A model generated the notes under the pieces. The model saw only the letters and a list, made by a program, of their open reading frames with translations. It searched no databases and was not told the DNA's origin. This document shows, piece after piece, positions 3,687 through 40,999 of a stretch of 64,000 bases of DNA. This DNA is from a virus (Duplodnaviria; Heunggongvirae; Uroviricota; Caudoviricetes): the IMG/VR virus record IMGVR_UViG_2541047715_000004; one strand, given 5' to 3'. Each line of letters begins with the position of its first letter. Position 1 is the first letter of the stretch. The position numbers were made by a program, and so were the translations under genes.

Positions 3687-4159
3687 AGATGATCGCTGCT
3701 GTTGGCCGTAACTATGAGATCGGCATAGCGAATGAACTCCCCTGGCGTTGTTCTACCGATCTGAAGCTATTTAAGAGACTCACCAAAAACGCCACTGTCG
3801 TTATGGGGCGTAAAACGATGGAAAGTCTCAAACGCCCTCTTCCAGAGCGTCATAACCTCGTTTTGACGCGCTCTCATGGCTTTGTACCAAATGGATTCTA
3901 CCCTGCTGGTGTGGATGATGTGTTGCGATTACCAGAGCCTGTGTGGGTGATTGGCGGGGAACAAATTTACTCGCTATTCATGCCGCATGTTGAAGAGATT
4001 TGGCTCTCCCACATCGGCGTTGATGTACCAAACGCCGATGCATTCTTCCCGGCAAGCATGATGCGTAACTTAGGCTTTGTGCCTGTTGAAACAGCTTATA
4101 CCCAACGAGCCAGCGAGGAAGAGCCTGGCTTTTCGCAGATCGTATACAGAAGGTCGTAA
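3683..4159 (+). CDS. folA: dihydrofolate reductase
   Basis: MIAAVGRNYEIGIANELPW, VVMGRKTMESL, VIGGEQIY typical of DHFR; 158 aa. Confidence 0.85.
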   Translation: MKMIAAVGRNYEIGIANELPWRCSTDLKLFKRLTKNATVVMGRKTMESLKRPLPERHNLVLTRSHGFVPNGFYPAGVDDVLRLPEPVWVIGGEQIYSLFMPHVEEIWLSHIGVDVPNADAFFPASMMRNLGFVPVETAYTQRASEEEPGFSQIVYRRS

Positions 4160-4803
4160 TGGATTACCGGATTGGGATCACTGGTGCTCAGGGCAGTGGG
4201 AAAACAACCCTGGCAAAATATATCGACAAACATTACGGAATCCCTTACGTGGATGCTGGTGTCGGAAGTTTGATGAGCCGCCTCGGTGTTCGAGTAGGTG
4301 AGTCTATGCCTCTATATGAGCGGCTTCAGATTCAAATGGAAATAGCAAAGCATATAGAGCTACTTACGCGTGGTGTTGAAGGCTTTGTTATCGATCGCAC
4401 ACCTGCTGATGTTATGGCCTACACGTTGGATTTGGTCGGCCATACCAATGAAGATCGATGTATTGAGTTAGCCCTCGATATCGAAAAGTTTTGCCACAAA
4501 ACTGCTATTTCAAACTTTAACGCCATTGCTGGCTTACGCCCGGGAGTCGCTCTCTCAGAGCGAGATTACTTGCGATCACAACGAGCATCATTAGACCGTC
4601 TGTATGTCGCTCGTATTGATGCGTTGATGTGCGGGGAACTGACAAAAATTCACCTGCATCCGCAAAGGGGGGATCTGCAAACCTTCGTCGTTTCCAACCG
4701 ATATCGCACGGTTGAAGCAAGAGCCAGATCAGTGATGAGAATGCTAGATAACGCTGTAGAAAAGATAGAAAACCGGTTCTGTGGCCGAGTGACCGTTCAT
4801 TAG
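4159..4803 (+). CDS. P-loop NTPase, putative nucleotide kinase
   Basis: Walker A GITGAQGSGKTT at N-terminus; ATGA overlap with DHFR stop. Confidence 0.5.
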   Translation: MDYRIGITGAQGSGKTTLAKYIDKHYGIPYVDAGVGSLMSRLGVRVGESMPLYERLQIQMEIAKHIELLTRGVEGFVIDRTPADVMAYTLDLVGHTNEDRCIELALDIEKFCHKTAISNFNAIAGLRPGVALSERDYLRSQRASLDRLYVARIDALMCGELTKIHLHPQRGDLQTFVVSNRYRTVEARARSVMRMLDNAVEKIENRFCGRVTVH

Positions 4804-13010: not shown

Positions 13011-16000
13011 CTATATCTGCCCACCTACTCCTTTGAACTTTTCAATAAACGTGACGATTTTCTGGAAAACGGTCTGTTTTTTCGTTTTATATTGCGGGTT
13101 TAACGGACTAAGTTTTGGTAATGTCTCGTTTAATTCTGTGCCATTTTCGGTGGCGTATTCGCGTTTTAAAGACGTGCGAATATAGCGTTTCGCCGCCTCT
13201 TCATTGAGATTTTCTTCTTTTATCAATGCTTCTGCTTCACGTTGCTGTTCGCGTTGAGCAAACGTAAAGAATGCCTCAATGATACTGGCTTTGTCTGGTA
13301 AATCATCCAGGTTCGTTTGCTGAATAAAATCGACCACCAGGCCCTCTTTCGCCCGGTTCCCCAGGCTTGAACGAATTAAGCGTTTGACCTCTTCGATCAT
13401 TTCGCCCTTGCCTTTATTTTGTCTGTTGTGTTCGAAAATCAGTCCAAGGATATAATCCAGGTTTATTTCCTGAGACTTCAGCAAATCGACCTCAAAAACT
13501 ACGTCATCCCAGTCAGTGGTTGATTTCTCTTTTTTCTCAGCTTCTTTCTCACGGCGCTGCCAGTCGCGAATATCGTTATAGGCAGAACGATAATCCTGAA
13601 TCTTGCGTTCAGCAGGGAGACGAATTGTTTGCAATTCAGCGAACTTTTCATCATCCACATAATGTTCTGCTTTGAATTTTTCTACCGCAACAGGATCGCT
13701 AAGATCGATTTGTTGCAGGGCTTTCAGCGTGGCAAATTCATCATAGTTTTGCAGGATGTTCTCGGCACGCAGGTATTCACCAAACAGTTTTACGAAGTCT
13801 TTCTTCTCTTTTTCACTTTCAATACTGGCAGGGTCAGGGAACCGTTGTTCCAGTTCTGAAACTACTGCCATAAAGCCGCGTTTAGCTTCACCAGTGGCAG
13901 CATCTGTAAAGCCTTCCATATACTCAGCATAACTCTTTTCTAACACCACATTTTTAGTATTTTTATCACCAAACAGCGTTATGGCATCAATGGTTGAGCG
14001 TTCCAGATCCCGAAAAGTGACGATGTTACCGAAGGTTTTAGTAGCGTCATAAATGCGGTTGGTACGGGAGAATGCCTGCATCAGGCCGTGAAAACGCAAG
14101 TTTTTATCGACGAATAGCGTGTTCAATGTTGGAGCGTCGAAGCCGGTTAAAAACATCCCAACGACAATTAACAGATCGATATCCTGATTTTTAACCCGTT
14201 GGGCTAAATCACGATAGTAGTTCTGAAAACCGTTACTGTCGGTGCTGAAGTTAGTTTTAAAATAGCTGTTATACTCACGAATTGCAGCGTCAAGAAACTC
14301 TTTAGCACTGCTGTCCATTGCGCTGGTATCAAAAGTTTCATCGGAAATTTCACCAATGGCATTTTGTTCTTCATTGGCGGCAAAGGAGAAGATTGTTGCA
14401 ACACGCAGCGGTTTATAGGTAGCCGATTTATTAGCTGCTTCCTCTTGTAACCGTTTAAACGTCGCGTAATAGGCTTTCGCGGCATCCACGCTACTCACTG
14501 CCAGCATGGCATTAAAGCCTTTGGAACCTGGGAAAGTACGGTGGGTCTTCTGGCGGAAGTTATTCAGAATATATTGCGTAATTTCCTGTATACGCATGGG
14601 ATGAAGAAATGCCTGCTGATTTTCAGCCGCACTCAGTTTTTTCTCGTCGGTTTCTGTCTCTAAAGATTTAAACTGTGGCCGCACATCGTTGTAGTCCACC
14701 TTGAATTTGAGCACTTTTTCATCACGAATCGCATCGGTAATTACATACGAATGCAATTCACGACCAAATACGCTGGCGGTCGTTTCTGAGCCTAAGGCGT
14801 TTTCCGGGAAAATAGGTGTGCCGGTAAAACCAAACTGATAATAGCGTTTGAATTTCTTCTTCAGGTTTTTCTGCGCTTCTCCAAACTGGCTGCGGTGACA
14901 TTCATCAAATATAAACACCACTTGCTGATTGTATACAGGCAGGTCGCTTTCTGCTTTCATCAGGTTATTAAGTTTCTGAATAGTGGTGACGATAATTTTG
15001 TTATCGTCCTTATCCAGATTGCGTTTAAGACCTGCGGTATTTTCCGAGCCGTTGACGCTGTCTGGCGAAAAACGCTTATATTCATTCATGGTCTGGTAAT
15101 CGAGGTCTTTCCTGTCGACCACGAAGAAGACTTTATCAATAAAGTCCAGCTCTGTTGCCAGACGCGCGGCTTTAAAGCTGGTGAGGGTTTTACCTGAACC
15201 GGTAGTGTGCCAGATATACCCACCGCTTTCCGGTTTTGACCAGTTCTTCGCTGTAAAGGAACTCTTAATTTTCCACAGAATGCGCTCAGTGGCGGCAATC
15301 TGGTACGGTCGCATCACCAGTAGCGTTTGGCTAACATCGAATACGCTGTAGTTCACTAAGACATTAAGCAGGGTATGTTTCTGGAAAAAGGTGGCGGTAA
15401 AGTCTTTGAGGTCTTTAATCAGCGTGTTGTCTGATTTCGCCCAATTCATGGTGAAGTCAAAACTGTTTTTATCGCGCTTTGTCGTGTTGGCAAAGTAACG
15501 GGTATCGGTGCCGTTGGAAATGACAAACAGTTGCAGATACTTAAACAGAGAATTTTCGCTGTTAAAACTCTCTTTGCTGTAACGATGTATCTGGTTAAAG
15601 GCCTCACGAATCGCCACGCCGCGCTTTTTCAGTTCGATTTGTACCAGCGGTAAGCCATTAACCAGGATCGTGACGTCATAACGGTTAGCATGAGAACCCG
15701 TCTGTTCAAACTGCTGGATAATCTGCACCTTGTTGCGCATGAGATTCTTTTTATCTATCAAATAGATGTTCTCAAGACGCTCGTCATCAAAAATAAAGTC
15801 GCAAATATAGTCGATATGGATTTTACGGGTCTTATCCAGGATGCCATCGCTCGGGTTATCCAGATACTGCTCCGTGAAACGCCGCCATTCGCTGTCATTA
15901 AACACCACACCATTGAGGTTCTGAAGCTGTTCCCGAACGTTGGCCAGCATCGCCGACTGAGATTTTACGGAAATAAATTCATAGCCCTGATTCCGCAGAT

Positions 16001-16127
16001 CCTGAATCAGTTCACGTTCCAGGTCCGATTCGCTCTGGTAGCTGTCGCCTGTTTGCTCGGCTTTGATGTACTTATCAAGAACGATAAAGTTATTGGATTC
16101 AGCAATGGTGTGTGTCTGATGAGTCAT
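13011..16127 (-). CDS. hsdR: type I restriction enzyme R subunit, type IC (EcoR124-like)
   Basis: 1038 aa; Walker [13 protein letters not shown]-box FDECHRS, helicase motifs; N-terminus [20 protein letters not shown] matches my recollection of EcoR124 HsdR. Confidence 0.95.
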
Positions 16128-16248
16128 AGCGCATCCTTTGTGCCGTCTGGCAAGGGCCGGAAGGGCTTTAAGGGCGACTTCCGGCGTGTAAAAAATAGTC
16201 TCTATATAGACCGGATGTTAAGGTGATCCGGTCGGTAGCAATGGTCAA

Positions 16249-17496
16249 TTAGTTACTGATAGTTTCAGGTTTGGGAAAACTGAACAGTAAATCACGATAG
16301 TACTCGTATTGTTTCTGGCGCAACTCGATTTCACGCGGAAGACCTTCGGTGATGGAATTGGTCAAAGCATCAAATTTATCCAGTAATTTCACTATTTTTT
16401 GTTGTTCAACTAGCGATCTTTCAGGAGAATCAGGAAATGGTACTGGTATCATAAGTTTTCTTAAGTTATCATTATAAAGTCTTTTAATAGTTCCACCTTC
16501 AGATATTCCCCATTTTGCTATTTTATAGAAATAGAATAAATATTTATTTAAAACTATTTTTTCATTATTTTCAATCCAGACAATATTGCTATCCTGGAAA
16601 TATGATTCCCTACCATCAAATATAACAGTCCTGCCGATGGTCCCACTGGCAGAAATCAATACTTCGCCAACTTTAGGATAACTATATTTTTCTTTAAATT
16701 CATTAAATAGTTTTCTAGATATATAGGAATCGGGTTCCTTACCAAATGTCCCAATTTTATAAAATGGAATCTCTCCCTCAGAAGATGTTTGTGATTTTAG
16801 GATTCGTTTACACATACGAACTTCACCAATTTCCCCCAAAGCTTTCCACTCAACCTCACCCTCTTTAAAACTCAACAACTGGTCGCGATAGTAGTTGTAT
16901 TGTTTTTTACGCATGCTAAGCTCAGCGGTAAGCTCAGCGGTAAGTGCAGTAAATTTATCCAGAATCCTGACGATTTCAGACTGGATAGCCAGCGACTTTT
17001 CCGGGTTGTTGGGGCAAGGGATGGGGATAAGTAATTTACCTATATCTTTAGCATACAAATGATAAACAGTAGAACCTTTAACCATTTGCAATATCTTTTT
17101 TTTGTTATTTATTATGAAATTACTTAGATATCTACCATCAACACCAGAGCATCTAATAATCAAAATATCGCCGCCTAAAATAACGCCACTTTCTTGAATG
17201 CAACTAGCTGTAGCCAAACCTCTTGGTGTAACGTCTGACGTTGGCATTAGAACATCATTTTTTTCAGATAGAATTGACTCATTGATTGCTTGGTTTGTTT
17301 TTGAGCATACTTTGTCAATTATGGGACCATAATGAGTGAAAAGCTCACCGTAATGAATACAATATCTATTGCCATCTGGAGTTATTTTTTCTTTAGGTAA
17401 AGACTTCCCTTTTAAAAAAGTTGCTAATTTATTTAATGCTACCCACTCAACCTCAGCCCCATCCAGCAGTTTTTCCAGATAACTCAGCTCGCTCAT
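16249..17496 (-). CDS. hsdS: type I R-M specificity subunit, type IC with two divergent TRDs
   Basis: Conserved N-terminal, central ([29 protein letters not shown]) and C-terminal ([41 protein letters not shown]) regions; AT-rich variable TRDs. Confidence 0.95.
16918..16941 (-). repeat. 2 x 12-bp tandem repeat in hsdS central region, encoding TAEL-TAEL
   Basis: + strand AAGCTCAGCGGT twice, then a degenerate third copy. Confidence 0.85.
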
Positions 17497-19055
17497 GCCT
17501 GTACCTCGCTACCTTCAATCTCAGCAACAATCGCATCAATATCTTTACGCAACTGGTCGATTTTGCTGACCGTGGTTTTCAGCTCAGCATTCAGCTCAGC
17601 GATATCGATAATTTCGCGAGTATCTTTCGCTTCCACATAGCTGCTCACCGACAGGTTATAGTCATTCGCGACAACAGTCTCAAACGCAACAGATTTCGCC
17701 AGATGAGCAACATCTTCCTTGCTGGCAAATACCTGCATAATCTGTTCGATATGAGCATCGGTCAGAATGTTGTTGTTAGTCTCTTTTTTGAACAGTTCGC
17801 TGGCATCAATAAACTGAACTTTGGTATCCGTTTTATGTTTAGACAGCACCAGAATATTGACGGCAATAGTGGTGCCAAAGAACAGATTCGGTGCCAGTGA
17901 AATCACGGTTTCGACATAGTTATTGTCGACCAGATACTGACGGATTTTCTGCTCCGCGCCGCCACGGTAAAAAATGCCTGGGAAGCAGACAATCGCAGCG
18001 CGACCTTTGGCCGAAAGATAGTTCAGCGCATGTAATACAAACGCAAAGTCAGCTTTGGATTTGGGGGCCAGAACGCCAGCCGGGGCAAAACGTTCATCGT
18101 TAATCAGCGTCGGGTCATCGCTGCCAATCCATTTCACCGAATACGGCGGGTTAGAAACGATGGCATCAAACGGTTTTTCATCTCTGAAGTGCGGCTCAGT
18201 CAGTGTATTACCCAGCTTGATATCAAACTTGTCGTAGTTGATGTTGTGCAAAAACATGTTCATACGCGCCAGGTTATAGGTCGTATGGTTGATTTCCTGA
18301 CCAAAAAAACCTTCTTCGATGATATGGTCATCAAACTGTTTTTTCGCCTGCAACAACAGCGAACCGGAGCCTGCTGCCGGGTCGTAGATTTTGTTAACGT
18401 GGGTCTGCCCGTGCATAGCCAGTTGTGCAATCAGCTTAGAGACGTGCTGCGGTGTAAAGAACTCGCCGCCGGACTTACCGGCATTCGCCGCATAGTTAGA
18501 AATCAGGAACTCATAGGCGTCACCGAACAGGTCAATCTGATGTTCATGGAAGTCACCAAGTTTTAGCCCTTCAACCCCTTTCAGAACCGCAGCCAAGCGG
18601 GCATTTTTATCTTTAACGGTGTTACCCAGGCGGTTACTGGTGGTATCGAAATCAGCAAACAAACCTTTGATGTCAGCTTCTGAAGGATAACCGTAAGCAG
18701 AACTTTCGATAGCAACGAAGATGCTGTTTAAATCTGCATTCAGTCTGTCATTAGTATTTGCTTTCGCAGCTACGTTGCAGAAAAGCTGACTGGGGTAGAT
18801 GAAGTAGCCTTTAGTTTTGATGGCATCGTCTTTAATGTCATCAGTAATTACGCTGTCATCCAGTTTCGCATAACAGATACTGTCATCACCGGCTTCAATA
18901 TAACTGGAAAAATTTTCGCTGATAAAACGGTAAAAAAGCGCGCCCAAAACGTACTGCTTAAAATCCCATCCATCGACTGAACCCCTGACATCGTTAGCAA
19001 TTTGCCAGATCTGGCGATGAAGCTCTGCACGTTGTTGAATACTTGTCATTTTCAT
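17493..19055 (-). CDS. hsdM: type I R-M N6-adenine DNA methyltransferase subunit
   Basis: 520 aa; motif [14 protein letters not shown]; stop overlaps hsdS start (ATGA). Confidence 0.95.
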
Positions 19056-20158: not shown

Positions 20159-20184
20159 AGGCGGTGCAATGCACCGCCTTTTAT
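20159..20184. terminator. bidirectional terminator between convergent UmuD'-like gene and apbC
   Basis: AGGCGGTGCAATGCACCGCCT followed by TTTAT. Confidence 0.6.
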
Positions 20185-21284
20185 CACACTGCGCGGAATG
20201 CGATTTCGCCAGGTATTACTTCACCTTGCCAATACATTTGGGCGGCAACGCGATCTGCGAGGTCACGATAAATAGCCGTAAATTCGCTATCTGGACGACT
20301 AATAACGGTTGGTGTTCCGTTATCCAGATCTTCACGAAGAGAGATATGAAGTGGCATTTGGCCTAACAACTGCGTGTTGTATTTCTCGGCCAGTTTCTGT
20401 GCGCCACCGGTGCCAAAAATTGGCTCGTGATGACCGCAGTTACTGCAAATATGCACACTCATGTTTTCGACGATACCCAGTACCGGCACTTCGACTTTTT
20501 CGAACATCACAATGCCTTTCTTCGCATCGATCAGCGCGATGTCTTGCGGCGTAGTTACCACAACCGCACCAGTTACAGGAATGTTCTGCGCCAGCGTCAA
20601 CTGAATATCACCAGTGCCCGGCGGCATATCGAGAACGAGATAGTCCAGATCAGGCCATAGAGTTTCCTGCAACATCTGCATCAGCGCCTTGCTGGCCATC
20701 GGTCCACGCCACACCATTGCATTGTCGTCGGTGACCAGATAACCAATAGAGTTGGTTGCCAGGCCATGAGACATGATAGGTGCCATGTGAGTACCGTCAG
20801 GTGAGGTTGGACGTTGGTTTTCCGCGCCCAGCATGGTTGGAATTGATGGACCATAGATATCGGCATCCAAAATACCAACTTTCGCACCTTCAGCAGCCAA
20901 CGCCAGTGCCAGGTTTACCGCCGTGGAGGATTTACCCACGCCGCCCTTGCCTGAGCTGACGGCGATAATGTTCTTAACGCCATTAATGCCTGGTTGGTTT
21001 TTGACGCGCTTAAGCGTGGCAATGTTGTACGACAGCTTCCAGTCAATAGCCTTTGCGCCAGTGATACGGAGCAGATCACCACTACATTGCTCTTTCAGGT
21101 CTTCAAAAGGCTTATTCCACACGAAAGGCATGATTAGTTCGACATGCAGTGTGTCATCCATCAACGCAACATGGTGTAACGCTTTAAGCGTAGTCAGGTT
21201 GTGTTTCAGGGTTGGGTGCTGAAAATTAGCCAGCGTACCGGCTACCATTGCTCTCAGGGCATCCGGCGATTTGGACTCGCTCAT
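20184..21284 (-). CDS. apbC: Fe-S cluster carrier ATPase ApbC/Mrp
   Basis: 366 aa, GKGGVGKS P-loop; near-identical to E. coli Mrp as I recall it. Confidence 0.95.
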   Translation of the reverse strand: MSESKSPDALRAMVAGTLANFQHPTLKHNLTTLKALHHVALMDDTLHVELIMPFVWNKPFEDLKEQCSGDLLRITGAKAIDWKLSYNIATLKRVKNQPGINGVKNIIAVSSGKGGVGKSSTAVNLALALAAEGAKVGILDADIYGPSIPTMLGAENQRPTSPDGTHMAPIMSHGLATNSIGYLVTDDNAMVWRGPMASKALMQMLQETLWPDLDYLVLDMPPGTGDIQLTLAQNIPVTGAVVVTTPQDIALIDAKKGIVMFEKVEVPVLGIVENMSVHICSNCGHHEPIFGTGGAQKLAEKYNTQLLGQMPLHISLREDLDNGTPTVISRPDSEFTAIYRDLADRVAAQMYWQGEVIPGEIAFRAV

Positions 21285-21441
21285 CCCGTCTCCTTTATTT
21301 TAATTTGCGCAATTGTCGCCTTGTAGTGTACTCCAGCTACGACATTTAATCATTTATGAGAAATGCTGTTATCACATGGCAGACATAAGGCCATTTTGTT
21401 ACTATCAAGCCCCTTTTCACTACAAAGAAGTAATGCCTACT

Positions 21442-23475
21442 ATGACCCAAGTCGCGAAGAAAATTCTGGTGACGTGCGCGCTGCCGTACGCTAACGGCTC
21501 AATCCACCTCGGCCATATGCTGGAGCACATCCAGGCTGATGTCTGGGTTCGTTACCAGCGAATGCGCGGCCACGAGGTTAATTTCATCTGTGCCGACGAT
21601 GCCCACGGTACGCCGATCATGCTGAAAGCACAGCAGCTTGGTATCACACCGGAGCAGATGATTGGCGAAATGAGTCAGGAACACCAGACTGATTTCGCAG
21701 GCTTTAACATCAGCTATGACAACTATCACTCGACGCACAGCGAAGAGAACCGCCAGCTGTCTGAGCTTATCTATACTCGCCTGAAAGAGAACGGTTTTAT
21801 TAAAAACCGCACTATCTCTCAGTTGTACGACCCGGAAAAAGGCATGTTCCTGCCGGATCGTTTTGTGAAAGGCACCTGCCCGAAATGTAAAGCGCCAGAT
21901 CAATACGGCGATAACTGTGAAGTCTGCGGCGCAACATATAGCCCGACTGAATTGATCGAGCCGAAATCGGTGGTTTCTGGCGCTACCCCGGTAATGCGTG
22001 ATTCCGAACACTTCTTCTTTGATCTGCCTTCTTTCAGCGAAATGTTGCAGGCATGGACCCGCAGCGGCGCGTTGCAGGAGCAGGTGGCGAACAAAATGCA
22101 GGAATGGTTTGAATCCGGCCTGCAACAGTGGGATATCTCCCGAGATGCGCCTTACTTCGGTTTTGAAATTCCGAACGCGCCGGGCAAATATTTCTACGTC
22201 TGGCTGGACGCGCCGATTGGCTACATGGGTTCCTTCAAGAATCTGTGCGACAAACGCGGCGACACTACCAGCTTCGACGAATACTGGAAGAAAGACTCCA
22301 CCGCCGAGCTGTACCACTTCATCGGTAAAGATATCGTTTACTTCCACAGCCTGTTCTGGCCTGCCATGCTGGAAGGCAGCAACTTCCGCAAGCCGACCAA
22401 CCTGTTTGTTCACGGCTATGTGACGGTGAACGGCGCGAAGATGTCCAAGTCTCGCGGCACCTTTATTAAAGCCAGCACCTGGCTGAATCATTTTGACGCC
22501 GACAGCCTGCGTTACTACTACACTGCGAAACTCTCTTCGCGCATTGATGATATCGATCTCAACCTGGAAGATTTTGTTCAGCGCGTGAATGCCGATATCG
22601 TGAACAAAGTGGTTAACCTGGCCTCCCGTAATGCAGGTTTTATCAACAAACGTTTTGACGGCGTGCTGGCAAGCGAACTGGCTGACCCGCAACTGTACAA
22701 AACCTTCACTGATGCCGCTGAAGTGATTGGTGAAGCGTGGGAAAGCCGCGAATTTGGCAAAGCTATCCGTGAAATCATGTCACTGGCTGACCTGGCTAAC
22801 CGCTATGTTGATGAACAGGCTCCGTGGGTGGTGGCGAAGCAGGAAGGCCGCGATGCCGACCTGCAGGCGATTTGCTCTATGGGCATTAACCTGTTCCGCG
22901 TGCTGATGACGTACCTGAAACCGGTACTGCCGAAACTGACTGAACGTGCAGAAGCATTCCTGAATACAGAACTGACCTGGGATGGTATCCAGCAACCGCT
23001 GCTGGGCCATAAAGTGAATCCGTTCAAGGCACTGTATAACCGTATCGATATGAAACAGGTGGAAGCACTGGTGGAAGCATCCAAAGAAGAAGTGAAAGCC
23101 ACAGCTGCACAGGTAACTGGCCCACTGGCTGACGACCCGATTCAGGAAACCATCACCTTTGACGACTTCGCCAAAGTTGACCTGCGTGTGGCGCTGATTG
23201 AAAACGCGGAGTTTGTCGAAGGTTCTGACAAACTGCTGCGTCTGACACTGGATCTCGGTGGTGAAAAGCGTAATGTCTTCTCAGGCATCCGTTCTGCTTA
23301 TCCAGACCCACAGGCACTGATTGGTCGTCACACCATTATGGTGGCTAACCTGGCTCCGCGTAAAATGCGCTTCGGTATCTCCGAAGGCATGGTGATGGCT
23401 GCTGGCCCCGGCGGGAAAGATATCTTCCTGTTAAGCCCGGATGCTGGTGCTAAACCAGGCCACCAGGTTAAGTAA
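21442..23475 (+). CDS. metG: methionine--tRNA ligase
   Basis: 677 aa from ATG 21442; HLGH and KMSKS motifs; near-identical to E. coli MetG as I recall it; divergent from apbC as in E. coli. Confidence 0.95.
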
Positions 23476-32500: not shown

Positions 32501-34060
32501 CTAATCTCGTTTCAGAACTCCAAAATCGAATGCGCCATCAATAGGCAATACACCTTCTGCAAAGCCAGGTGTGGTGTCGATGATGTGTTTTCGCTCATAA
32601 GAGTGAGACAACAGGTATTTGTTGCTAATGTCAATGAAATCAGTGATAAAACACACGTTTGCCTGATTTTTTTTGGCTCGTAAGCCACGACCGACACGCT
32701 GTCTCATTTCAACTTCTGCTTTCCCACCACCAGCAAGAATGACCGCACCAACGCTTGGCACATCAACACCGACATCCAGAATAGTCGAGCCTATTAAAAC
32801 ATCTATTTCTCCAGACGCTAAACTGTTCAGCTTTGCTTGCCTTGTCGCCTGGTTAGATTCCCCATAGATGAAGTCAACTCTAAGGCCGGACTCTTTCATC
32901 ATTTCCATCAGGATTTGCCCGTGGCGTTTAAGACGAACCAGAGTCATACAATTGAGAGAATGTTGCTTATAGAGCAATGCTTCGCGAACAATGGCCTCGT
33001 TACGTCCCAAATTATACACGATCCCCAACTGATAAGCCTTTTGGTAGGCGGTGCTCATACCAACTCTAAAATTGAGGTGTTTGTTGGCAAGTTCGGCCTT
33101 GATTCTGGCCTCGTCTGGCTTGTAGGCAACTTTATGATAAAGGAAGTACGGCTTTGCCAGAATGCCTCGATCAATCAGGTACTTTTCTGTGACTTTAATT
33201 TCAATTCGCCCGGCCACCGCCATCAGGCGCATGTTGGCTTCCGTCGAATCCTTCATGAACGGCGTGGCTGTAAGCGCCAGACGATAGTCTGCGTTCACAC
33301 ATAATCTGGCGATGTCATAGAAATTTGAGCCTGAAGACTCATGCGCCTCTTCCAGAATAAGAAGAGAGACACTTGAAAGGAAGCGTTTCACCAACTCCCG
33401 ACGTTTGAGGTGGTAGCTCTTTTTATCTGGTGTTGCATCGCGTGGTGGTTCTTCGAGGAAACTTGCAAGAGTTTGAACTGTAGCGACGTTGATATGTCGT
33501 GATACCTGGAACTCACCCGAGCCAATGACTCCAACCTTTTGGTCTTTTAACCACGGTTCGCCATTTTCGGCGCGGTAGTCGATGGATCTCTGGAAGTTTT
33601 CGGCCATTTGAAACATCAGAACAGAGCGGGTTGTTAAAAATAATGTCATTCGACCGATACGTGCAGCTGCTTTGCAGGCAACATTAGATTTCCCGCCACC
33701 AGTAGCGATCTGCGCAATCATCATTCCCTCTCGAACCAGTGTTTCCACAGTCTGATCCTGATACGCATAATCAGGATTGTATGGGAATGGGTTAACCGCC
33801 GGATTTGGTTTTCCAAGCGCCGGGGCTTTGTCTTTGCGGATATGAACACATTTGATGCCCGCCTTGTTCAAGTTCGCCGCTACAGGCTTGGCAAAGCCAG
33901 CAGGGAACGAGTTTTTACTCCAGTTGAACATCGTGCTTGTGCCCTTCCAGTCGCCAGTCTCGACTTCGTAGCTCAACATTTGCTGCACCAGTTGCTTTAC
34001 CTTGTCATCTGCGCCAGAAATAAGCGCATTTACTGCGTTAGATACAATCCGAACAGTCAT
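32501..34060 (-). CDS. superfamily 2 (DEAD/DEAH-like) helicase
   Basis: Walker A ATGGGKS, motif II LEEAH, motif III TATP, motif VI QRVGRGLR. Confidence 0.75.
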   Translation of the reverse strand: MTVRIVSNAVNALISGADDKVKQLVQQMLSYEVETGDWKGTSTMFNWSKNSFPAGFAKPVAANLNKAGIKCVHIRKDKAPALGKPNPAVNPFPYNPDYAYQDQTVETLVREGMMIAQIATGGGKSNVACKAAARIGRMTLFLTTRSVLMFQMAENFQRSIDYRAENGEPWLKDQKVGVIGSGEFQVSRHINVATVQTLASFLEEPPRDATPDKKSYHLKRRELVKRFLSSVSLLILEEAHESSGSNFYDIARLCVNADYRLALTATPFMKDSTEANMRLMAVAGRIEIKVTEKYLIDRGILAKPYFLYHKVAYKPDEARIKAELANKHLNFRVGMSTAYQKAYQLGIVYNLGRNEAIVREALLYKQHSLNCMTLVRLKRHGQILMEMMKESGLRVDFIYGESNQATRQAKLNSLASGEIDVLIGSTILDVGVDVPSVGAVILAGGGKAEVEMRQRVGRGLRAKKNQANVCFITDFIDISNKYLLSHSYERKHIIDTTPGFAEGVLPIDGAFDFGVLKRD

Positions 34061-34142
34061 AAACCTCTTTCCTTAGTGCCTTTTGTATGTTATTTGGCTA
34101 TTATAATAAGTAAGTGATTACTTAGTGGATTGTAGCAATAAA

Positions 34143-34823
34143 ATGGATGTAAAAATCACGATTTTGCAGGTTGATGTTGCCAACCTTCGCCCGAATACCT
34201 GGAACACCAATTCGGTTGGTGCGCAGAATTTTGAAAAACTGAAAGGTTCTATCGAAAAATTGGGCTTTTTTAAGCCAATTTTGGCTCGTGAACTTGAAGA
34301 TGGATTTTTTGAAATCCTAGGCGGCGAACATCGCTGGCGTGCTGCTATTGAGCAAGGAATTTCAACGGTTCCGGTGCTTTCTGTGGGCAAAATTAGCGAT
34401 GTCGTAGCTAAACAGATGTCACTGGTGGACAACGAGCGATACGGTGAAGACGACCAAATCGCATTGCAACGCTTCATTGAAGAAATTCAGTCAGAACTTG
34501 ACTATCAACTGTCTGAAATCGCCCCGTATGACGACGAAATCTCGATGGTTTTAGCAAAAGAGGCGGCAATCGACCTTGAAGCACTGGAGGCGTTGTCTCG
34601 TGGTAGTGATGAGCCTGTCGATACCGACAAACGAGAGAAAACCGAACGTGTGGGGGCGGAACATCAGACCATGCGCTTCAAAGTAACTTTCGATGCGTCA
34701 GATCGTGTTGCAGAAACCATAAAAAACATCATCAAAGAGCAGGCTATTAACACCGGTAATGAAATGGAGAACGCTGGTGAGGCTCTGGTGTGGCTGGTCG
34801 ACTACTACAAGGAGCGTATGTAA
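34143..34823 (+). CDS. ParB/Srx-like N-terminal domain protein
   Basis: ILGGEHRWRAA box; start set to ATG 34143 (track start is GTG 34125). Confidence 0.6.
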   Translation: MDVKITILQVDVANLRPNTWNTNSVGAQNFEKLKGSIEKLGFFKPILARELEDGFFEILGGEHRWRAAIEQGISTVPVLSVGKISDVVAKQMSLVDNERYGEDDQIALQRFIEEIQSELDYQLSEIAPYDDEISMVLAKEAAIDLEALEALSRGSDEPVDTDKREKTERVGAEHQTMRFKVTFDASDRVAETIKNIIKEQAINTGNEMENAGEALVWLVDYYKERM

Positions 34824-35491
34824 TGACCAAAAAGTTTGAAATCGTATATCGCGACCCGGCAGATCTTATTCCCTATGAGATGAATGCCAAAAAGCATGAT
34901 GAACAGCAGATCCGAGATCTGGCCGCAGCCATTAAAAAGCGCGGATTTGACCAGCCAATTACGGTCGATAAGAACGACGTAATTATTACTGGCCACGGCC
35001 GCCGTGAGGCTGCAATTTTTGCTGGACTTGAGCGCGTGCCGGTTATTGTTCGCGATGATCTGAGTGATGACGAGGTACGTGCAAAGCGCCTTGAAGATAA
35101 CCGACTTGCCAGCATTGATTACGATGCAATTAAGCTACAGAAAGAGCTTGAGTCGCTTGTTCTGGACGATATCGAGGTTTTCGGCTTCGAAGAGCGTGAG
35201 TTGAATGTTCTCGTTGGCAGTATGACAGAAGAAATGGACACCGACTCGCTAGTTATCGATCTTGGCGAAGAAACTAAACGACAGAAGGATGAACACACCG
35301 AGATCAGTCGTGAAGTTGCAGCGGAAGAAGTACGTGTTGTCGACGTATTGGGCTTTAAAACGCTCCCTGCTGGCTCTGCCATTGTTGTTGGTGATTTGCT
35401 TGCCCATATGGAAGAAATGACGGGAGAAAGCGGGGTAGACGCATTTGTGGCATATGCGGAGAAGATCTCTTCCGGGGAGATGGCTGCATGA
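34823..35491 (+). CDS. ParB/Srx-like N-terminal domain protein (second copy)
   Basis: ITGHGRREAA box; TAATG overlap with upstream gene. Confidence 0.6.
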   Translation: MTKKFEIVYRDPADLIPYEMNAKKHDEQQIRDLAAAIKKRGFDQPITVDKNDVIITGHGRREAAIFAGLERVPVIVRDDLSDDEVRAKRLEDNRLASIDYDAIKLQKELESLVLDDIEVFGFEERELNVLVGSMTEEMDTDSLVIDLGEETKRQKDEHTEISREVAAEEVRVVDVLGFKTLPAGSAIVVGDLLAHMEEMTGESGVDAFVAYAEKISSGEMAA

Positions 35492-36153
35492 GCAAATACA
35501 TCATCAACGTATCGTTTCAGACACGCGTAAATAAAACCACGCGCACGTTGGAAATCGCTGAGTCGTTCGGGCTTGGCCTGGACGAAAAAGAGTGGACGCT
35601 TTACGACAATCTGGAGCTGGAAGTGAAGCAGGGCGATGTGGTGTACATCACCGGCCAATCCGGTTCCGGCAAATCCGTTGTGCTGCGCGAGTTGCAACGA
35701 CAGATGAAGGATGAAGGGCTGTCTGTAGCCTCCATCGATGATTTTACCTTCGATAATGAGGTTAACGTCATCGATCAGTTGGGCAAAACGACCAGTGATG
35801 CGCTTGGGTTGTTATCTATGGCTGGTCTGAACGATGCATATCTGTTTGTTCGCAAGCCTTCTGAAATGTCAGACGGCCAGAAATATCGTCTCAAGATTGC
35901 CAAACTGATTGAGTCAGGCGCTAAAGTATGGGCTGCTGACGAGTTCGGCGCTGTTCTCGACCGTGTAACCGCTCAGGTTGTGGCGTCTAACCTCCAGCGT
36001 GCCGCTCGAAAGGTTGGTGCGACGGTAATGGTGGCGACGACTCACGAAGACCTGAAGAACGCGCTGCGCCCTGATATGCAGATCACCAAGCACTACAAAG
36101 AACGCGTGAAGGTGGAATATCACAATGGTAGTCATGATGAGGTCCATTCATGA
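35488..36153 (+). CDS. ABC-type ATPase without transmembrane domain
   Basis: Walker A GQSGSGKS, signature-like SDGQKYRL, Walker B VWAADEFGAVLD; ATGA overlap. Confidence 0.6.
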   Translation: MSKYIINVSFQTRVNKTTRTLEIAESFGLGLDEKEWTLYDNLELEVKQGDVVYITGQSGSGKSVVLRELQRQMKDEGLSVASIDDFTFDNEVNVIDQLGKTTSDALGLLSMAGLNDAYLFVRKPSEMSDGQKYRLKIAKLIESGAKVWAADEFGAVLDRVTAQVVASNLQRAARKVGATVMVATTHEDLKNALRPDMQITKHYKERVKVEYHNGSHDEVHS

Positions 36154-37040
36154 CGGACATCATCATTAAACGCTACCGCCCTGAAGAGTTTCCGCGTCAT
36201 CTGGACTTTCTGGAGCGAATGACTGTTACAAAGGGAACTGTAGAGGACTGGCACGCTCTTAAATCGCTTCACTACAAAACAGACGGCAAACCTTTCGCGC
36301 CAACATACTATCGCTGCGAACTGGATGACCGTCTGGTGGGCGTCGTGGTTATGGCTTACCCGAAACTTCTGCTGGCACCTCGCCATCGCATGTTTCCTAA
36401 GTTGAAACCAACTACCAATACCACCGTGGCTAACCAGTACTGGGGTCGGTACGTGAATAACAACTTTGCGGTGATCAGCCGCTCAGTTGTGGATACTCAG
36501 TACCGTGGCGTAGGCGTCTCTTATCGAATGATTAACCTGGTTAGCAGGATGCATGACCGGCCAATCATTGAGATCCAGTCATCGATGAGCAAATACAATC
36601 CCTTCGCCATGAAAGCAGGGTTTAAGTTCATCCGCCCTGAGCGACCGAAGAGCTATGAAAGTGCACTGCGTGTATTCCAGCGCCATTTCCGTTCCGACCC
36701 GGGTGATAACGAGGCGATCGTCAAAGAGTTGTTCGCAATGAGCGAGTCTCGTCGTCGCCGTGCACTGCGTGATCTGGTGGCGGACTACCACAAGAACAGT
36801 TCCCTGGCAAAAGCTGGGCGGAATCGTGGCACGACGATTCAGGACATTGCCGACAGTCTGGTGGACGAGGCCAGCATTGTGAAGCTGCTCAAGGACATTC
36901 ACAACCTGAGCTTTACGTCTCCGTTGTATGGTGTGTACCGAAACCCTGACTTTGGCCGTCGACTGCCTGACACGCTGCCACTGCTGGCATTCGACAAACA
37001 ACCTTTGGATAAACCGTTAGAAATTGCTTTACCGGCATAA
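36150..37040 (+). CDS. hypothetical protein with possible GNAT acyltransferase motif
   Basis: VISRSVVDTQYRGVGVSYRMINLV resembles GNAT motif A; ATGA overlap with ATPase gene. Confidence 0.4.
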   Translation: MTDIIIKRYRPEEFPRHLDFLERMTVTKGTVEDWHALKSLHYKTDGKPFAPTYYRCELDDRLVGVVVMAYPKLLLAPRHRMFPKLKPTTNTTVANQYWGRYVNNNFAVISRSVVDTQYRGVGVSYRMINLVSRMHDRPIIEIQSSMSKYNPFAMKAGFKFIRPERPKSYESALRVFQRHFRSDPGDNEAIVKELFAMSESRRRRALRDLVADYHKNSSLAKAGRNRGTTIQDIADSLVDEASIVKLLKDIHNLSFTSPLYGVYRNPDFGRRLPDTLPLLAFDKQPLDKPLEIALPA

Positions 37041-37049
37041 GGATTTGCC

Positions 37050-37316
37050 ATGACGTTAACCGATAAACAAAAGGACATCATCAAAACGCTCAATCTCGGT
37101 TATGAGCGAGGTCATCTACTTGACCTGGACGAATTGCTTGAAGTTTTGCCGTACAAGACAACCAAGCAAAGTATCCAGTTCTCAATTCGCGCTCTGATAA
37201 AAAAGGGGCTGGTGGAGAAAGGGCATACGCGCCAACGCAGTGACAATCGCTATCACCGCCGGACTCTTGGGTTAACCACTTTAGGTCGAGCCAAAGCGAA
37301 GTTACTGGTGATGTAA
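37050..37316 (+). CDS. small basic protein, putative DNA-binding
   Basis: 88 aa, basic C-terminus. Confidence 0.4.
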   Translation: MTLTDKQKDIIKTLNLGYERGHLLDLDELLEVLPYKTTKQSIQFSIRALIKKGLVEKGHTRQRSDNRYHRRTLGLTTLGRAKAKLLVM

Positions 37317-37340
37317 TCGGTCTGGGAGCTTATTTAAAGA

Positions 37341-37393
37341 CCTGCTTCTGTATATAAATAATAAGTAACTTATTAAATATATACGGAAGCAGG
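37341..37393 (+). repeat. second copy of long hairpin with same 16-17-bp arms as 7620-7678
   Basis: CCTGCTTCTGTATATA ... TATATACGGAAGCAGG, same arm mismatch as copy 1. Confidence 0.6.
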
Positions 37394-37454
37394 CTTCGTA
37401 AGACATGCCAGACCTAATTAAACACCCCAGAAAACAAGTTGGTTAGCAGATGCA

Positions 37455-37473
37455 GTAAACAAGTTGTTTTAGA
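37455..37473 (+). promoter_or_regulatory. family 1 palindrome (GTAAACAAGTTGTTTTA), plus half-site at 37428-37445
   Basis: Upstream of ATG 37510. Confidence 0.4.
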
Positions 37474-37509
37474 GCGCATGGACGCGCTCTGTGTGTTTTA
37501 GAGGGATCT

Positions 37510-38142
37510 ATGACGGTCGAAAAAGACGAGGTAAAAACTCGCCTGACACCAGCGGAGTGGGCCGAAGCTGAAGCCAAATGGACGTCAGGCGAATATACAC
37601 TCTCAAAGCTGGAGGAAGAGTACGGCATTCGTCGTGAAACACTCTCCAGACATTTCAAAAAGCGAGGATTAGAGAAAGGCGCGGACTCTGTTGGGAAGAT
37701 GGTTCGTGAGTCTCTTAAATCTGACGCAGAGCTTCGCGCTAAAGCCCGTGCGGAAAAGATAGAAGAACGTCGTACACGTTATGACGGCTGGGCGTATGCG
37801 TTGGGGCAGATGGTGATGGTCGAAGTCACTACGGCCAAACGTGAGGGTAAGCCTTTAGGGGCGATTGAGGATTCTCTCAAGAGCTTACAGAGAGCCAGTA
37901 ATACCCTTGCAAAATGCTTTGAAGTTTCGTCCAAAGCATTGGGCATGGATCATGCGGAAAATGACGAGGAAGAAATTCCGAACCTGGTATTTGGTGAGCT
38001 TACGCCTTCCCAGGTGGCGAAATTACGTCAGGAAGACGACGAGCCTGAAATCATCGATGACGAATTGCTTGAGACGTTGGAAGAAGAAGCTCTAAGCGAA
38101 TTTGATGCGACAGATGATGGAATTGAAGGGGAGGACGAATAA
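37510..38142 (+). CDS. putative terminase small subunit
   Basis: Directly upstream of and overlapping TerL (TAATG); helical N-terminus, acidic C-terminus. Confidence 0.5.
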   Translation: MTVEKDEVKTRLTPAEWAEAEAKWTSGEYTLSKLEEEYGIRRETLSRHFKKRGLEKGADSVGKMVRESLKSDAELRAKARAEKIEERRTRYDGWAYALGQMVMVEVTTAKREGKPLGAIEDSLKSLQRASNTLAKCFEVSSKALGMDHAENDEEEIPNLVFGELTPSQVAKLRQEDDEPEIIDDELLETLEEEALSEFDATDDGIEGEDE

Positions 38143-39398
38143 TGGCAATCCCGTCCTCGCTCAGTCTTGTGCAACTGCATTCTGGACAGATGAAAGTCTT
38201 CCAGTCTCCGCATCGATTTAAAGTTGTTTGTGCTGGTCGACGCTGGGGAAAATCCCGGTTGTCGATCTCCACTATTATTCGTGCGGCGGCAAAGGAAAAA
38301 AAGCAAAGAGTCTGGTATGTCGCTCCTACTTACCAGATGGCTCGCCAGATTTTGTGGGACGATCTACAGGAAGTTCTGCCTCGTAAGTGGGTTAGGAAAA
38401 AGAACGACACCACGATGACAATCGTGTTGAAGAACGGTTCGGAGATCGCCCTCAAAGGTGCTGATAAGCCTGACACTCTGCGCGGCGTAGCGTTGCATTT
38501 TGTAGTGCTTGATGAATTTCAGGATATGAAGGCTGACACCTGGTACAAGGTGTTACGACCTACTCTTTCATCGACACGCGGCGGTGCACTGATCATTGGT
38601 ACGCCAAAAGGCTTCTCGGAATTTCACAAACTGTGGACTATAGGCCAGAACGTAGAGCTGCAAAGAAAGGGACAGTGGAAGAGCTGGCAGTTTGTAACTG
38701 CCGATTCTCCGTTTGTACCTACGGCGGAAATTGAAGCTGCTAAGAACGATATGGACCCGAAATCGTTCGCTCAGGAGTACCTGGCGAGCTTTGAGAACAT
38801 GTCCGGGCGCGTTTACTACCCGTTCGATCGTAACGTGCATGTAAAACCGCTTCAGTTCAACCCTCGGTTGCCTATATGGGTAGGGCAGGACTTCAACATT
38901 GACCCGATGTCTTCAGTAATTTTGCAACCTCAGCCAAATGGTGAGCTATGGGCAATTGATGAATTGGTGCTCTTTTCCTCTAACACGGCAGAGGTTTGTG
39001 ATGAGCTTGAGAGACGCTTCTGGCGCTGGAAATCACAGATAACGGTATTTCCAGATCCGGCAGGTGCTTATCGCCAACATGCTCGCGGGGAGTCTGACGT
39101 CGACATATTCAAAGAGAAGGGATTCTTACGTGTCGATTATTCGAAAAAGCACCCGCCAATTGCGGATCGTGTTAATGCTGTTAACCGAATGCTGATGTCC
39201 GCATCTGGAGATATCCGGCTGTATATCGATCCGAAGTGCAAGCATTTGATTGATTCACTGGAAAAAGTCATCTACAAGCCTGGAACACGAGATATGGATA
39301 AGACAGGTGGCATTGAGCATAGTGCAGACGCATTGGGCTATCCAGTACATCGTAGGTATCCAGTCAAAAACCGTGTTATTCTTGGTGGTTCTCGATAG
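38142..39398 (+). CDS. terminase large subunit
   Basis: ATPase motif VCAGRRWGKS, Walker B VVLDEF, followed by nuclease-like region; precedes portal. Confidence 0.8.
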   Translation: MAIPSSLSLVQLHSGQMKVFQSPHRFKVVCAGRRWGKSRLSISTIIRAAAKEKKQRVWYVAPTYQMARQILWDDLQEVLPRKWVRKKNDTTMTIVLKNGSEIALKGADKPDTLRGVALHFVVLDEFQDMKADTWYKVLRPTLSSTRGGALIIGTPKGFSEFHKLWTIGQNVELQRKGQWKSWQFVTADSPFVPTAEIEAAKNDMDPKSFAQEYLASFENMSGRVYYPFDRNVHVKPLQFNPRLPIWVGQDFNIDPMSSVILQPQPNGELWAIDELVLFSSNTAEVCDELERRFWRWKSQITVFPDPAGAYRQHARGESDVDIFKEKGFLRVDYSKKHPPIADRVNAVNRMLMSASGDIRLYIDPKCKHLIDSLEKVIYKPGTRDMDKTGGIEHSADALGYPVHRRYPVKNRVILGGSR

Positions 39399-39424: not shown

Positions 39425-40999
39425 ATGGAATTGAACGACAAACAAATTAAGGATCTGGTGGCGCGACGCCACCCGGAATACGAAAAGAAAAAAGAACATT
39501 GGGACTTCCTCGCCAGCACTTACGCTGGCGGGCGTGGTTGGTTTACAGACAATATCTTTCGTTACTTTAAAGAGGGAGATCAGGAGTTTAAGGAGCGAGT
39601 TGAACGTGCTTATCGCTTCAACCACACTCGTGAGGTGGTAAACCTCATCAACAAATATCTCTTTAAAGAAGACATTCATAGAAATATCGAAGAGGCACCA
39701 GAGCAGATCCGCAATTTCTGGAAACGTGCGACTCGCCAGAATGCCTCTATTGACTCATTTATGGCCGCTATTGATTTGCAGTCGTCTATTTACGGTCGCA
39801 TATGGGTTGTTGTCGATAGCACGATGAGTGGTGATGTTGAGTCAGTAGCTGACGAGAAAAAGAAAGATGCTCGCGCCTACGCCTACTGGATTTCACCTCA
39901 GCAAATGCTGGATGTGGCATGGGACGACGACGGGAATATGTTGTGGGCGTTAATTGTGGAAGTCGCTCGTGATGACGCAGATCCTTTTACTTCTACAGGT
40001 CAGGAATACCAACGTTATCGTCTGTGGACACAAAACGAGTGGTATCTGTTCCGTGAGGAAGTGAAGAAGGGCGCTGGTGGAGCAGGTCGCCGTCAGGCAA
40101 AAGTTATTTTAGAGGATAGCGGTGAGCATAATCTCGGCGTAGTTCCTGTGTTTCCTGTTGATTGTATTGGAGAAAGTGAATCACCGTATTTCAGCCCATC
40201 GTTGATCGATGATATCGCTTATCTTGATCGTGCGGTTGCAAACTATCTGTCAAACCTTGATGCCATTATTCAGGATCAGACATTTAGCCAGTTGGCTATA
40301 CCGGTACAGTCGCTTTTACCTGGTGATGAAAACCACACTAAAGTGCTTGAAATGGGCACAAAGCGAGTCTTCACCTACGATTCTGAAGGTGGAAACCAGC
40401 CGTTTTATCTGTCACCAGACCCGAAACAAGCTCAGATGATCATCACTACGATTAAGACGGTGATTAACGAAATCTACCATTCAGTTGGTGTAGCTGGTGA
40501 GCGAACGAAGCAGGACAACGCACAGGGAATCGATAACTCATCTGGTGCCGCAAAAATGTATGACTTCCAGCGTGTAAATAGCTTGCTTGTCACAAAAGCA
40601 GAGCGTCTGGAAAGGGCTGAACGCCAAATCATGCTACTGGTTGCGAAATGGATGGGGGTAGATCTGGACGAAGACCACTCATTAATTGCGTATCCAGAAA
40701 GTTTCGATATTCGTGGCCTTACTGATGAATTTTCTGTTGCCGAGAAACTGTCGTTACTTCAGGCACCGGACTCTGTACGTCGTCACCAGATGGAAATGCT
40801 GATTGAGAAGATTTTCCCGAACATCACTGAGGCGATGAAGAAGGAATTTGATAAAGATCTCTTGAATTTTCCGCCAAAAAATGATCTAAATACTCTTGAA
40901 AATAAGTCAGTACTTACTTATGATCAAGGCGCAGCCCAAGAAAGCGGGCAAGATCAACCCCGAGGGAATGGGGACTCATCTACTCAAGAGAACGAGTGA
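39425..40999 (+). CDS. portal protein
   Basis: 524 aa directly after TerL. Confidence 0.7.
   Translation: MELNDKQIKDLVARRHPEYEKKKEHWDFLASTYAGGRGWFTDNIFRYFKEGDQEFKERVERAYRFNHTREVVNLINKYLFKEDIHRNIEEAPEQIRNFWKRATRQNASIDSFMAAIDLQSSIYGRIWVVVDSTMSGDVESVADEKKKDARAYAYWISPQQMLDVAWDDDGNMLWALIVEVARDDADPFTSTGQEYQRYRLWTQNEWYLFREEVKKGAGGAGRRQAKVILEDSGEHNLGVVPVFPVDCIGESESPYFSPSLIDDIAYLDRAVANYLSNLDAIIQDQTFSQLAIPVQSLLPGDENHTKVLEMGTKRVFTYDSEGGNQPFYLSPDPKQAQMIITTIKTVINEIYHSVGVAGERTKQDNAQGIDNSSGAAKMYDFQRVNSLLVTKAERLERAERQIMLLVAKWMGVDLDEDHSLIAYPESFDIRGLTDEFSVAEKLSLLQAPDSVRRHQMEMLIEKIFPNITEAMKKEFDKDLLNFPPKNDLNTLENKSVLTYDQGAAQESGQDQPRGNGDSSTQENE

Follow-up and report, generated by a model that had tools for sequence, protein, structure and literature searches.

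A terminase-linked operon of an SSU5-type phage-plasmid pairs two ParB-fold proteins with a split ABC-ATPase/GNAT enzyme

Organisation of the operon

The 64,000-nucleotide stretch of viral DNA analysed here (IMG/VR record IMGVR_UViG_2541047715_000004; "the window") contains an operon of five genes, g1 to g5, beside the terminase genes. With 98.9% identity to Escherichia phage Cyrano and 85% to Salmonella phage SSU5, the window is an SSU5-type phage-plasmid. All five genes lie on the plus strand. The first two, g1 (34143-34823; 226 amino acids (aa), isoelectric point (pI) 4.55, with an alternative GTG start at 34125) and g2 (34823-35491; 222 aa, pI 4.53), encode paralogous proteins of the ParB-CTPase fold; g3 (35488-36153; 221 aa) encodes a soluble ATPase of the ABC type, g4 (36150-37040; 296 aa, pI 9.8) a GNAT-fold, acyltransferase-like protein with a helical insertion of ~90 aa, and g5 (37050-37316; 88 aa, pI 10.2) a basic, winged-helix-like and putatively DNA-binding protein. 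The charge pattern of the operon is thus two proteins of pI 4.5 (g1, g2), one of 9.8 (g4) and one of 10.2 (g5). Existing records name these genes "ParB protein", "ParB-like nuclease domain protein", "DNA modification methylase", "ABC transporter" or "hypothetical protein", and g4 also [quoted passage not shown].

The stop of g1 overlaps the start of g2 by 1 nt (TAATG), g2/g3 and g3/g4 overlap by 4 nt each (ATGA), and g5 follows g4 after 9 nt and is kept together with the module in relatives. An earlier note on this DNA had described a single four-gene operon just upstream of the terminase genes, and the open reading frames (ORFs), the junctions and a Pfam match for the large terminase subunit (TerL) bear this out: g1 to g4 are as described there, but the fifth gene and the split nature of the ATPase/GNAT enzyme were overlooked. 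The overlaps TAATG, ATGA and ATGA are likewise as the note gave them, although it counted four junctions, where four genes give three. Its conclusion that the genes are co-expressed stoichiometrically over-reads a common feature of phage genes: stop/start overlaps occur 18 times in the window, that between the terminase genes among them, and in relatives the ABC gene is separated from the GNAT gene by inserted small ORFs, so that the overlaps demonstrate an operon and not a fixed stoichiometry.

A split ABC-ATPase/GNAT enzyme

Profile comparisons show g3 and g4 to be the two halves of a COG2401-type enzyme, which many other viruses encode as one fused protein. In g3, which matches ABC_tran in Pfam (E 6e-13), the motifs are intact, namely Walker A (GQSGSGKS), the signature (SDGQ), Walker B (DEF, with its glutamate) and the H-loop histidine, while a match to CbiA/ParA covers the P-loop alone (E 1.4e-3). 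No Pfam family scores above threshold in g4 (GNAT E 0.037; Acetyltransf_10 14.4 bits, vs a 23.6-bit cut-off), and no sequence relative was found in the PDB; the fused homologue P0236, on the other hand, reaches 25.6 bits for Acetyltransf_1, above the cut-off of 20.7 bits. The profile of the g4 family retrieves 892 proteins, many of them 450-500 aa long with the g4-like region starting at ~residue 200, and the N-terminal part of these long proteins is ABC_tran by Pfam. Aligned with hhalign, the g4 family and the fused family give a probability of 100% (E 3e-40, 247 columns), and phmmer matches g3 to the N-termini of the fused proteins at E 1e-27 to 1e-61, with the archaeal (Bathyarchaeia) ones at E 1e-47 to 1e-61. 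Together, g3 and g4 are homologous from end to end to COG2401/"MK0520" proteins, whose name g4 already bears in databases, and the order of the domains is unchanged; the difference is that the enzyme is here a split variant, encoded by two genes overlapping by ATGA and separated by inserted ORFs in some relatives, while fused forms are found in Bathyarchaeia, Planctomycetota and viral contigs.

The catalytic motifs of the ABC domain are invariant across the fused family, as are, in g4, motif A (R119-G-V-G122-V-S124), H41, Y42, E141 and Y260. The enzyme joins a predicted ATP-hydrolysing ABC head to a basic GNAT-fold acyltransferase-like domain. An ABC transporter was considered for g3 and rejected: the operon and its immediate neighbours carry no permease or transporter domain, and the gene is fused to a GNAT domain elsewhere. 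The name "ABC transporter" is an annotation carry-over; orthologues of g4 are also found labelled "ABC transporter ATP-binding subunit", though they have no ABC domain.

Two further observations concern the architecture of this family. In relatives, the place where the ABC gene meets the GNAT gene is an insertion hot spot with one to three small unrelated ORFs (L002 8020-8274; L129 5018-5569; L007 7961-8999; L006 8705-8995; L130 5646-5981), one with a Phage_gp49_66 domain and one with a RyR domain, and none in the window. Among the fused homologues there are variants, such as P0166, P0179, P0205 and P0154, in which an intein interrupts the ABC domain, a family-B DNA polymerase is joined to the N-terminus or a TFIIB repeat to the C-terminus. 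These variants point towards nucleic-acid biology, the polymerase fusions as candidates that a gene-calling artefact might also produce.

The ParB-fold pair

Both g1 and g2 match ParB_N in Pfam (PF02195; E 3e-13 and 1e-8, respectively, each exceeding the gathering score) and the N-domains of Spo0J, ParB and Noc in the PDB. Their families align to each other by hhalign with a probability of 99.2 over ~125 columns, which makes them paralogues, and they form separate orthologous groups, each spanning distant phages. The motifs LRPNPWNPN, GG.HR and N.RYG.DD characterise the g1 family and PYE.NAKKH, GHGR and DNR the g2 family, and both sets differ from the GERRxR box of canonical ParB proteins. In each protein the C-terminal half has an acidic pI of 4.2-4.3. 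While g1 belongs to phrog_723, g2 matches phrog_930 and phrog_498 (a DNA methyltransferase N-terminus, E 1.7e-31), as well as the N-terminus of MTase_II in PADLOC (E 2.9e-17), and so resembles the ParB module found at the N-terminus of phage DNA methyltransferases. Orthologues of g2 in other loci (L130 4322-5014; L131 4177-4839; L003 6724-7392) are labelled "DNA methyltransferase" or "DNA modification methylase" and consist of the ParB module alone, without a methyltransferase domain.

The last ~55 aa of g1 and g2 have a beta-alpha-alpha pattern, for which we considered a ribbon-helix-helix; a PDB profile search and a Pfam scan with 11 orthologous fragments returned no family of this fold, which leaves it as a pattern-level lead. 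A search with the g1 profile returned solely near-identical Klebsiella clusters, and the AlphaFold2 model of g1, made from a shallow alignment, has a pLDDT of 39, too low for fold comparison. A known defence or anti-defence system was rejected as well, PADLOC giving partial P-loop and ParB-module matches alone (mad3, mad8, the MTase_II N-terminus) and none for g4.

Annotations such as "ParB-like partition protein" imply that g1 and g2 are the partition system of the plasmid prophage. The ParB_N domains and the phage-plasmid nature of the element agree with this, and databases and surveys do name these genes parB (PMC7969092; 10.1101/2025.09.12.675607). The pair also shares with the ParB proteins of ParABS systems (ParB/Spo0J, P1 ParB, KorB) the N-terminal ParB-CTPase fold and part of the GxxR and N motifs. 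Near the operon lie two sequences that may or may not act as parS, the 53-bp palindrome at 37341-37393 and a related motif at 34105-34119 (both described below). In other respects the pair differs from these systems. No ParA adjoins g1/g2, and the ATPase next to them, g3, is of the ABC type; a regular-expression search for the ParA-interaction motif [LIF]G[KR]G[LIF] found none in g1 or g2, and the Pfam scan detected neither HTH_ParB nor any other helix-turn-helix (HTH) family in them at E <= 0.1, although they may contain a cryptic DNA-binding element. The C-terminal half is acidic, and the genes are situated in the late/packaging region. In Cyrano, a gene for a ParA-family ATPase, to which a small gene downstream is coupled, lies beside the replication genes, just past the position at which the window ends, and the "MinD" inside the window is Mrp/ApbC rather than a ParA partner. 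Moreover, the module is kept in a chromosomal prophage (on a 3.27-Mb contig) and in Pseudomonas phage nickie, where, going by annotation alone, no ParA, Rep, integrase or repressor is present at 1-13 kb or 24-112 kb.

We therefore reject canonical ParABS partition for g1/g2, given the type of g3, the undetected ParA motif and HTH and the chromosomal prophage, and regard a partition system of the plasmid prophage as extremely unlikely. The use of the module's "parB" genes as plasmid-partition markers in phage-plasmid surveys is probably unjustified. That the operon is no canonical partition system had already been said in the earlier note, and the absence of a ParA partner, ParA-binding motif and detectable HTH, together with the separate ParA operon in the closest relative, agrees with it. 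Its assignments hold as well: a tandem ParB-fold pair, an ATPase of ABC rather than ParA type (recognisable by its signature motif) and a GNAT-like g4, the last now upheld by structure and by homology to the fused proteins.

Conservation and linkage to the terminase genes

Upstream of g1 and divergent from it is a superfamily-2 helicase of the UvsW/XPB-like type (32501-34060, minus strand; Pfam ResIII, DEAD, Helicase_C), a neighbour that is conserved in the related loci L006-L008, in nickie and in Rhizobium phage RHEph10. Downstream of g5, after an intergenic region of 193 nt, comes the gene of an acidic DNA-binding protein (37510-38142, plus strand; 210 aa, phrog_867) called "small terminase" in the Cyrano annotation, which by its position is inferred to be the small terminase subunit (TerS). 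Its stop overlaps the start of TerL (TAATG; TerL at 38142-39398, plus strand; Pfam Terminase_6N E 3e-9, Terminase_3, Terminase_6C), and TerL is followed by the portal gene (39425-40999, plus strand).

The recurrent gene order is helicase (minus strand), ParB, ParB, ABC, zero to three small variable ORFs, GNAT, winged helix-turn-helix (wHTH), TerS-like, TerL, portal. The module co-occurs in this order in SSU5, Klebsiella phage pJN2-26, nickie and RHEph10, and in L006-L008, these being the chromosomal prophage mentioned above, which lies on a metagenomic contig beside flagellar genes, an Ectothiorhodospira genome and another metagenomic contig. The identity of g4 is 40-44% in the metagenomic contigs, Ectothiorhodospira, nickie and RHEph10. 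The wHTH gene g5 (phrog_900, with weak matches to Sta1/Lrs14 and LexA-type winged helices) has orthologues in L006-L008, and small annotated ORFs take the equivalent position in nickie and RHEph10. Homologues of g4 are found in at least 967 plasmid records and 31 phage records, the plasmid carriers being phage-plasmids of Klebsiella, E. coli, Acinetobacter, Enterobacter, Yersinia and Salmonella.

More distant members retain the terminase. In Planctomycetota, where the ABC-GNAT enzyme is fused or split, a g1-type ParB adjoins it in seven loci, with TerL/portal next in four of the seven, and in Bathyarchaeia TerL adjoins it in five loci. We also considered 75 uncultivated viral contigs (IMG/VR; loci in the range L132-L211) that carry the fused gene. 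In 49 of the 75, TerL is no more than 1.5 kb away and mostly ends a few nt before the ABC-GNAT start, and Pfam confirms both TerL and ABC in one such locus, L165 (5471-8368). These loci show that the enzyme is genetically tied to TerL across bacterial and archaeal-type tailed viruses. Because TerL is near the fused gene in 49 of the 75 contigs and ParB, by profile, in none, TerL is the most constant partner of the enzyme, with ParB an addition in bacterial lineages.

Noncoding sites between the operon and the terminase genes

Several putative sites flank the operon, although Rfam has no match within 33900-38200. Upstream of g1, a promoter-like TATAAT is followed by AATAAGTAAGTGATT (34100-34124, plus strand), conserved in SSU5 and PhiR41_1. 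Copies of a related motif are present at 34105-34119 and 37360-37374, the only two occurrences, and a 53-bp imperfect palindrome (37341-37393), which has 26-nt arms and an AT-rich centre and lies between g5 and the TerS-like gene, has the near-identical AATAAGTAACTTATT at its centre. Large palindromes of different sequence occupy the equivalent position in pJN2-26, RHEph10, L006 and L008, and the linear records of SSU5 and Cyrano both break in the right arm of the palindrome. Next come two direct 17-nt repeats, CAGAAAACAAGTTGGTT and CAGTAAACAAGTTGTTT (37428-37469, plus strand), conserved in SSU5 and a putative binding site, and then, directly before the TerS-like gene, a terminator-like hairpin with a T-run (37470-37501, plus strand), the stem of which is conserved in SSU5. 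The ribosome-binding site of TerS lies downstream of the repeats and the hairpin. We consider the palindrome a candidate cos/pac site, operator or loading site. The layout as a whole is reminiscent of a cos region, with a nicking site, binding repeats and the small terminase, but a late promoter accompanied by an operator and a terminator would fit it just as well.

These sites bear on two rival explanations. According to the first, the ParB-fold pair, of the kind once called "ParB-like nucleases", acts with the ATPase to recognise or process cos/pac and assists the terminase, and the GNAT domain has a structural or regulatory part. This fits the end of the operon lying 25 nt from the palindrome at which the SSU5 and Cyrano records break, the comparable palindromes at the equivalent position in distant relatives, and the fused gene directly adjoining TerL. 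It would also fit the ends of the 75 viral contigs, which fall within 600 nt downstream of ABC-GNAT in 23 but upstream in 1, a bias suggesting that the fused gene sits at a genome terminus. Record ends may, however, not be physical genome ends, and a separate TerS-like protein is present. Furthermore, GNAT motif A and the candidate catalytic residues are invariant in very distant members, which argues for catalysis, and we consider such an accessory role at the packaging site quite improbable.

According to the second, the ParB-fold pair is a nucleoside triphosphate (NTP)-dependent sliding clamp like KorB, BisD or VirB that, with g5, controls the promoter and terminator before the terminase-structural operon. 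ParB-like clamps do regulate transcription in other mobile elements (PMC12409273, PMC13584720), the motif AATAAGTAA[GC]T[GT]ATT follows a -10-like hexamer upstream of both g1 and TerS, and the hairpin before TerS resembles a terminator. Yet the motif is found twice only and no HTH is detected in g1/g2, and regulation of late genes leaves unexplained the ABC-GNAT enzyme, the most widely conserved terminase-linked part of the module. Such a regulator is in our view very unlikely.

Proposed function

We propose that the operon encodes a late, terminase-linked acyltransferase complex that is driven by NTP, has DNA or the proteins bound to it as its target and uses the ParB pair as adaptors, a reading to which we give a probability of roughly 40%. 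We infer that the five proteins act jointly, late in infection, on DNA about to be packaged. In such a complex, the acidic ParB pair would be an NTP-gated adaptor or activator that loads or switches on ABC-GNAT at replicated phage DNA, in analogy to the phage ParB-like proteins that activate thymine dioxygenases. The ABC heads would then dimerise, driven by ATP, and so clamp two basic GNAT domains on the DNA, and the GNAT would transfer its acyl group just before or during packaging. The acceptor would most probably be a DNA base, by analogy with Mom and the ATPase-coupled TmcA/NAT10, or alternatively a lysine of a DNA-bound protein. The winged-helix protein g5 and the adjoining palindrome are candidate site-specific anchors.

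The proposal has precedents in part. ParB-terminase large subunit ("ParB-Tls") loci were reportedly described by Iyer, Zhang, Burroughs and Aravind in 2013. Such loci have been predicted by Iyer and Aravind to modify phage DNA during packaging (PMC4738411). The operon is like them in having a ParB-fold gene beside TerS/TerL/portal with an enzyme gene, and g2 is closest to the ParB module of methyltransferases in such loci; it differs in that the enzyme there is a methyltransferase, TET/JBP or similar, while here it is a split ABC-ATPase/GNAT accompanied by two ParB paralogues and a wHTH protein. Phage ParB-like proteins without a DNA-binding domain activate the 5mYOX thymine dioxygenases (PMC13229309). 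They, too, are short ParB-fold proteins with a nucleotide-binding domain and no DNA-binding domain, encoded beside a DNA-acting enzyme and often near the terminase, but their partner is an Fe/2-oxoglutarate dioxygenase, whereas here it is a GNAT with an ABC ATPase, so that an activating role is suggested by analogy. ParB-CTPase folds fused to enzymes bind various NTPs, and a ParB-acetyltransferase fusion binds GTP (10.1101/2025.10.10.680097).

Nucleic-acid-modifying GNATs offer another comparison. In phage Mu, Mom is a late function that protects DNA. It has the GNAT fold and acts on the adenines of DNA, which it modifies (PMC13219725), and Mom and TmcA/NAT10 are near the top of the structural matches of g4; in BFVD, where g4 has no close structural relative and matches generic GNATs alone, a Mom homologue ranks second. 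TmcA and NAT10 resemble the enzyme also in coupling their GNAT to a P-loop ATPase, although theirs is RecD-like and the one here of the ABC type. Methionyl-tRNA synthetase, which is encoded in the window, was considered as the source of a Mom-like aminoacyl-tRNA donor and rejected, its stretch being unaligned to SSU5 and so outside the core module.

Several points weigh against the proposal. Mom, TmcA and NAT10 match g4 no better than dozens of ordinary GNATs do, so that these matches point to no particular acceptor. The ParB profile matches none of the 75 archaeal-type viral contigs that carry ABC-GNAT, and ParB is therefore not universally required. Residues of the canonical ParB CTP pocket are partly kept (GEHR in g1, GHGR in g2). 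Finally, the literature searched contains no biochemical or genetic account of any member of the module and no report of a modified base in SSU5-like phages.

The main rival is a protein acetyltransferase for packaging. Here ABC-GNAT would clamp the DNA or move along it and, targeted by the ParB pair, acetylate the lysines of proteins found there, by which the DNA is cleared or licensed for the terminase; host nucleoid proteins such as HU/H-NS, archaeal Alba-type proteins, TerS, TerL and portal would be candidate targets. The usual substrates of GNATs are amines, whether of proteins or of small molecules, many of the top structural matches of g4 are protein N-acetyltransferases, and the operon has no further base-modification genes. 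In addition, an enzyme tightly linked to TerL in viruses of bacteria and in archaeal-type viruses alike should have a substrate that all of them share, and basic proteins on DNA would be one. On the other hand, g4 has no specific likeness to any protein acetyltransferase family, no candidate substrate has been identified, and the ParB-terminase loci in the literature carry DNA-modifying enzymes (PMC4738411). A protein acetyltransferase of this kind appears rather doubtful to us.

The earlier note had offered a DNA modification or anti-restriction module and a packaging accessory complex as hypotheses. Both are compatible with the evidence, and a packaging-coupled role is favoured because the linkage to TerL is strong. 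Returning to the terminase-linked acyltransferase complex, the broader possibility is that it represents a new class of terminase-coupled, DNA-tracking acyltransferases of tailed viruses of bacteria, and probably archaea, that either place an N-acyl mark on DNA bases or strip off chromatin proteins by acetylation during packaging. In proteobacterial phages such enzymes would be guided by a heterodimer of the ParB-CTPase fold, and the mark might be, for example, N4-acetyl-deoxycytidine or a Mom-like adduct derived from an aminoacyl group. We put this generalisation forward as a tentative one that is rather unlikely to hold.

Other features of the window

Other parts of the window depart from, or rename, what is annotated in Cyrano. 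A complete type I restriction-modification system is encoded on the minus strand (hsdR 13011-16127, hsdS 16249-17496, hsdM 17493-19055). This stretch (13011-19055) is unaligned to Cyrano, where the genes shared with the window are followed by DUF4942 and Ea22-like genes, and it is a variable cargo region of the phage-plasmid. At 20184-23475 there is a host-like mrp(apbC)-metG pair with a full-length methionyl-tRNA synthetase; the protein beside metG, of 366 aa and annotated "MinD" in Cyrano, is a P-loop protein of the Mrp/NUBPL type (PF10609, E 2e-102). The product of 4159-4803 goes by the name "ABC transporter ATP-binding protein" in Cyrano, another annotation carry-over: its only matches are to AAA_28 and further families of the P-loop kinase-like type, and it is not an ABC domain.

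Significance

While ParB-terminase modification loci have been predicted before, the combination with ABC-GNAT has no described function in the literature searched, where we found nothing on the function of COG2401/MK0520 or on an ABC-ATPase/acetyltransferase in phages. The sequences themselves have long been known and are abundant, and annotation routinely gives them a wrong name, "partition protein", "DNA methyltransferase" or "ABC transporter". The linkage of the core enzyme to TerL extends to viruses in Bathyarchaeia and Planctomycetota genomes, which suggests an old step in the packaging or DNA marking of tailed viruses. If our proposal is true, the operon would provide a second tractable case, in E. 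coli/Salmonella, of a ParB-CTPase fold working outside chromosome segregation, and possibly a new enzymatic modification of DNA or chromatin; should packaging-coupled acylation of either be demonstrated, the module would be of far greater interest.

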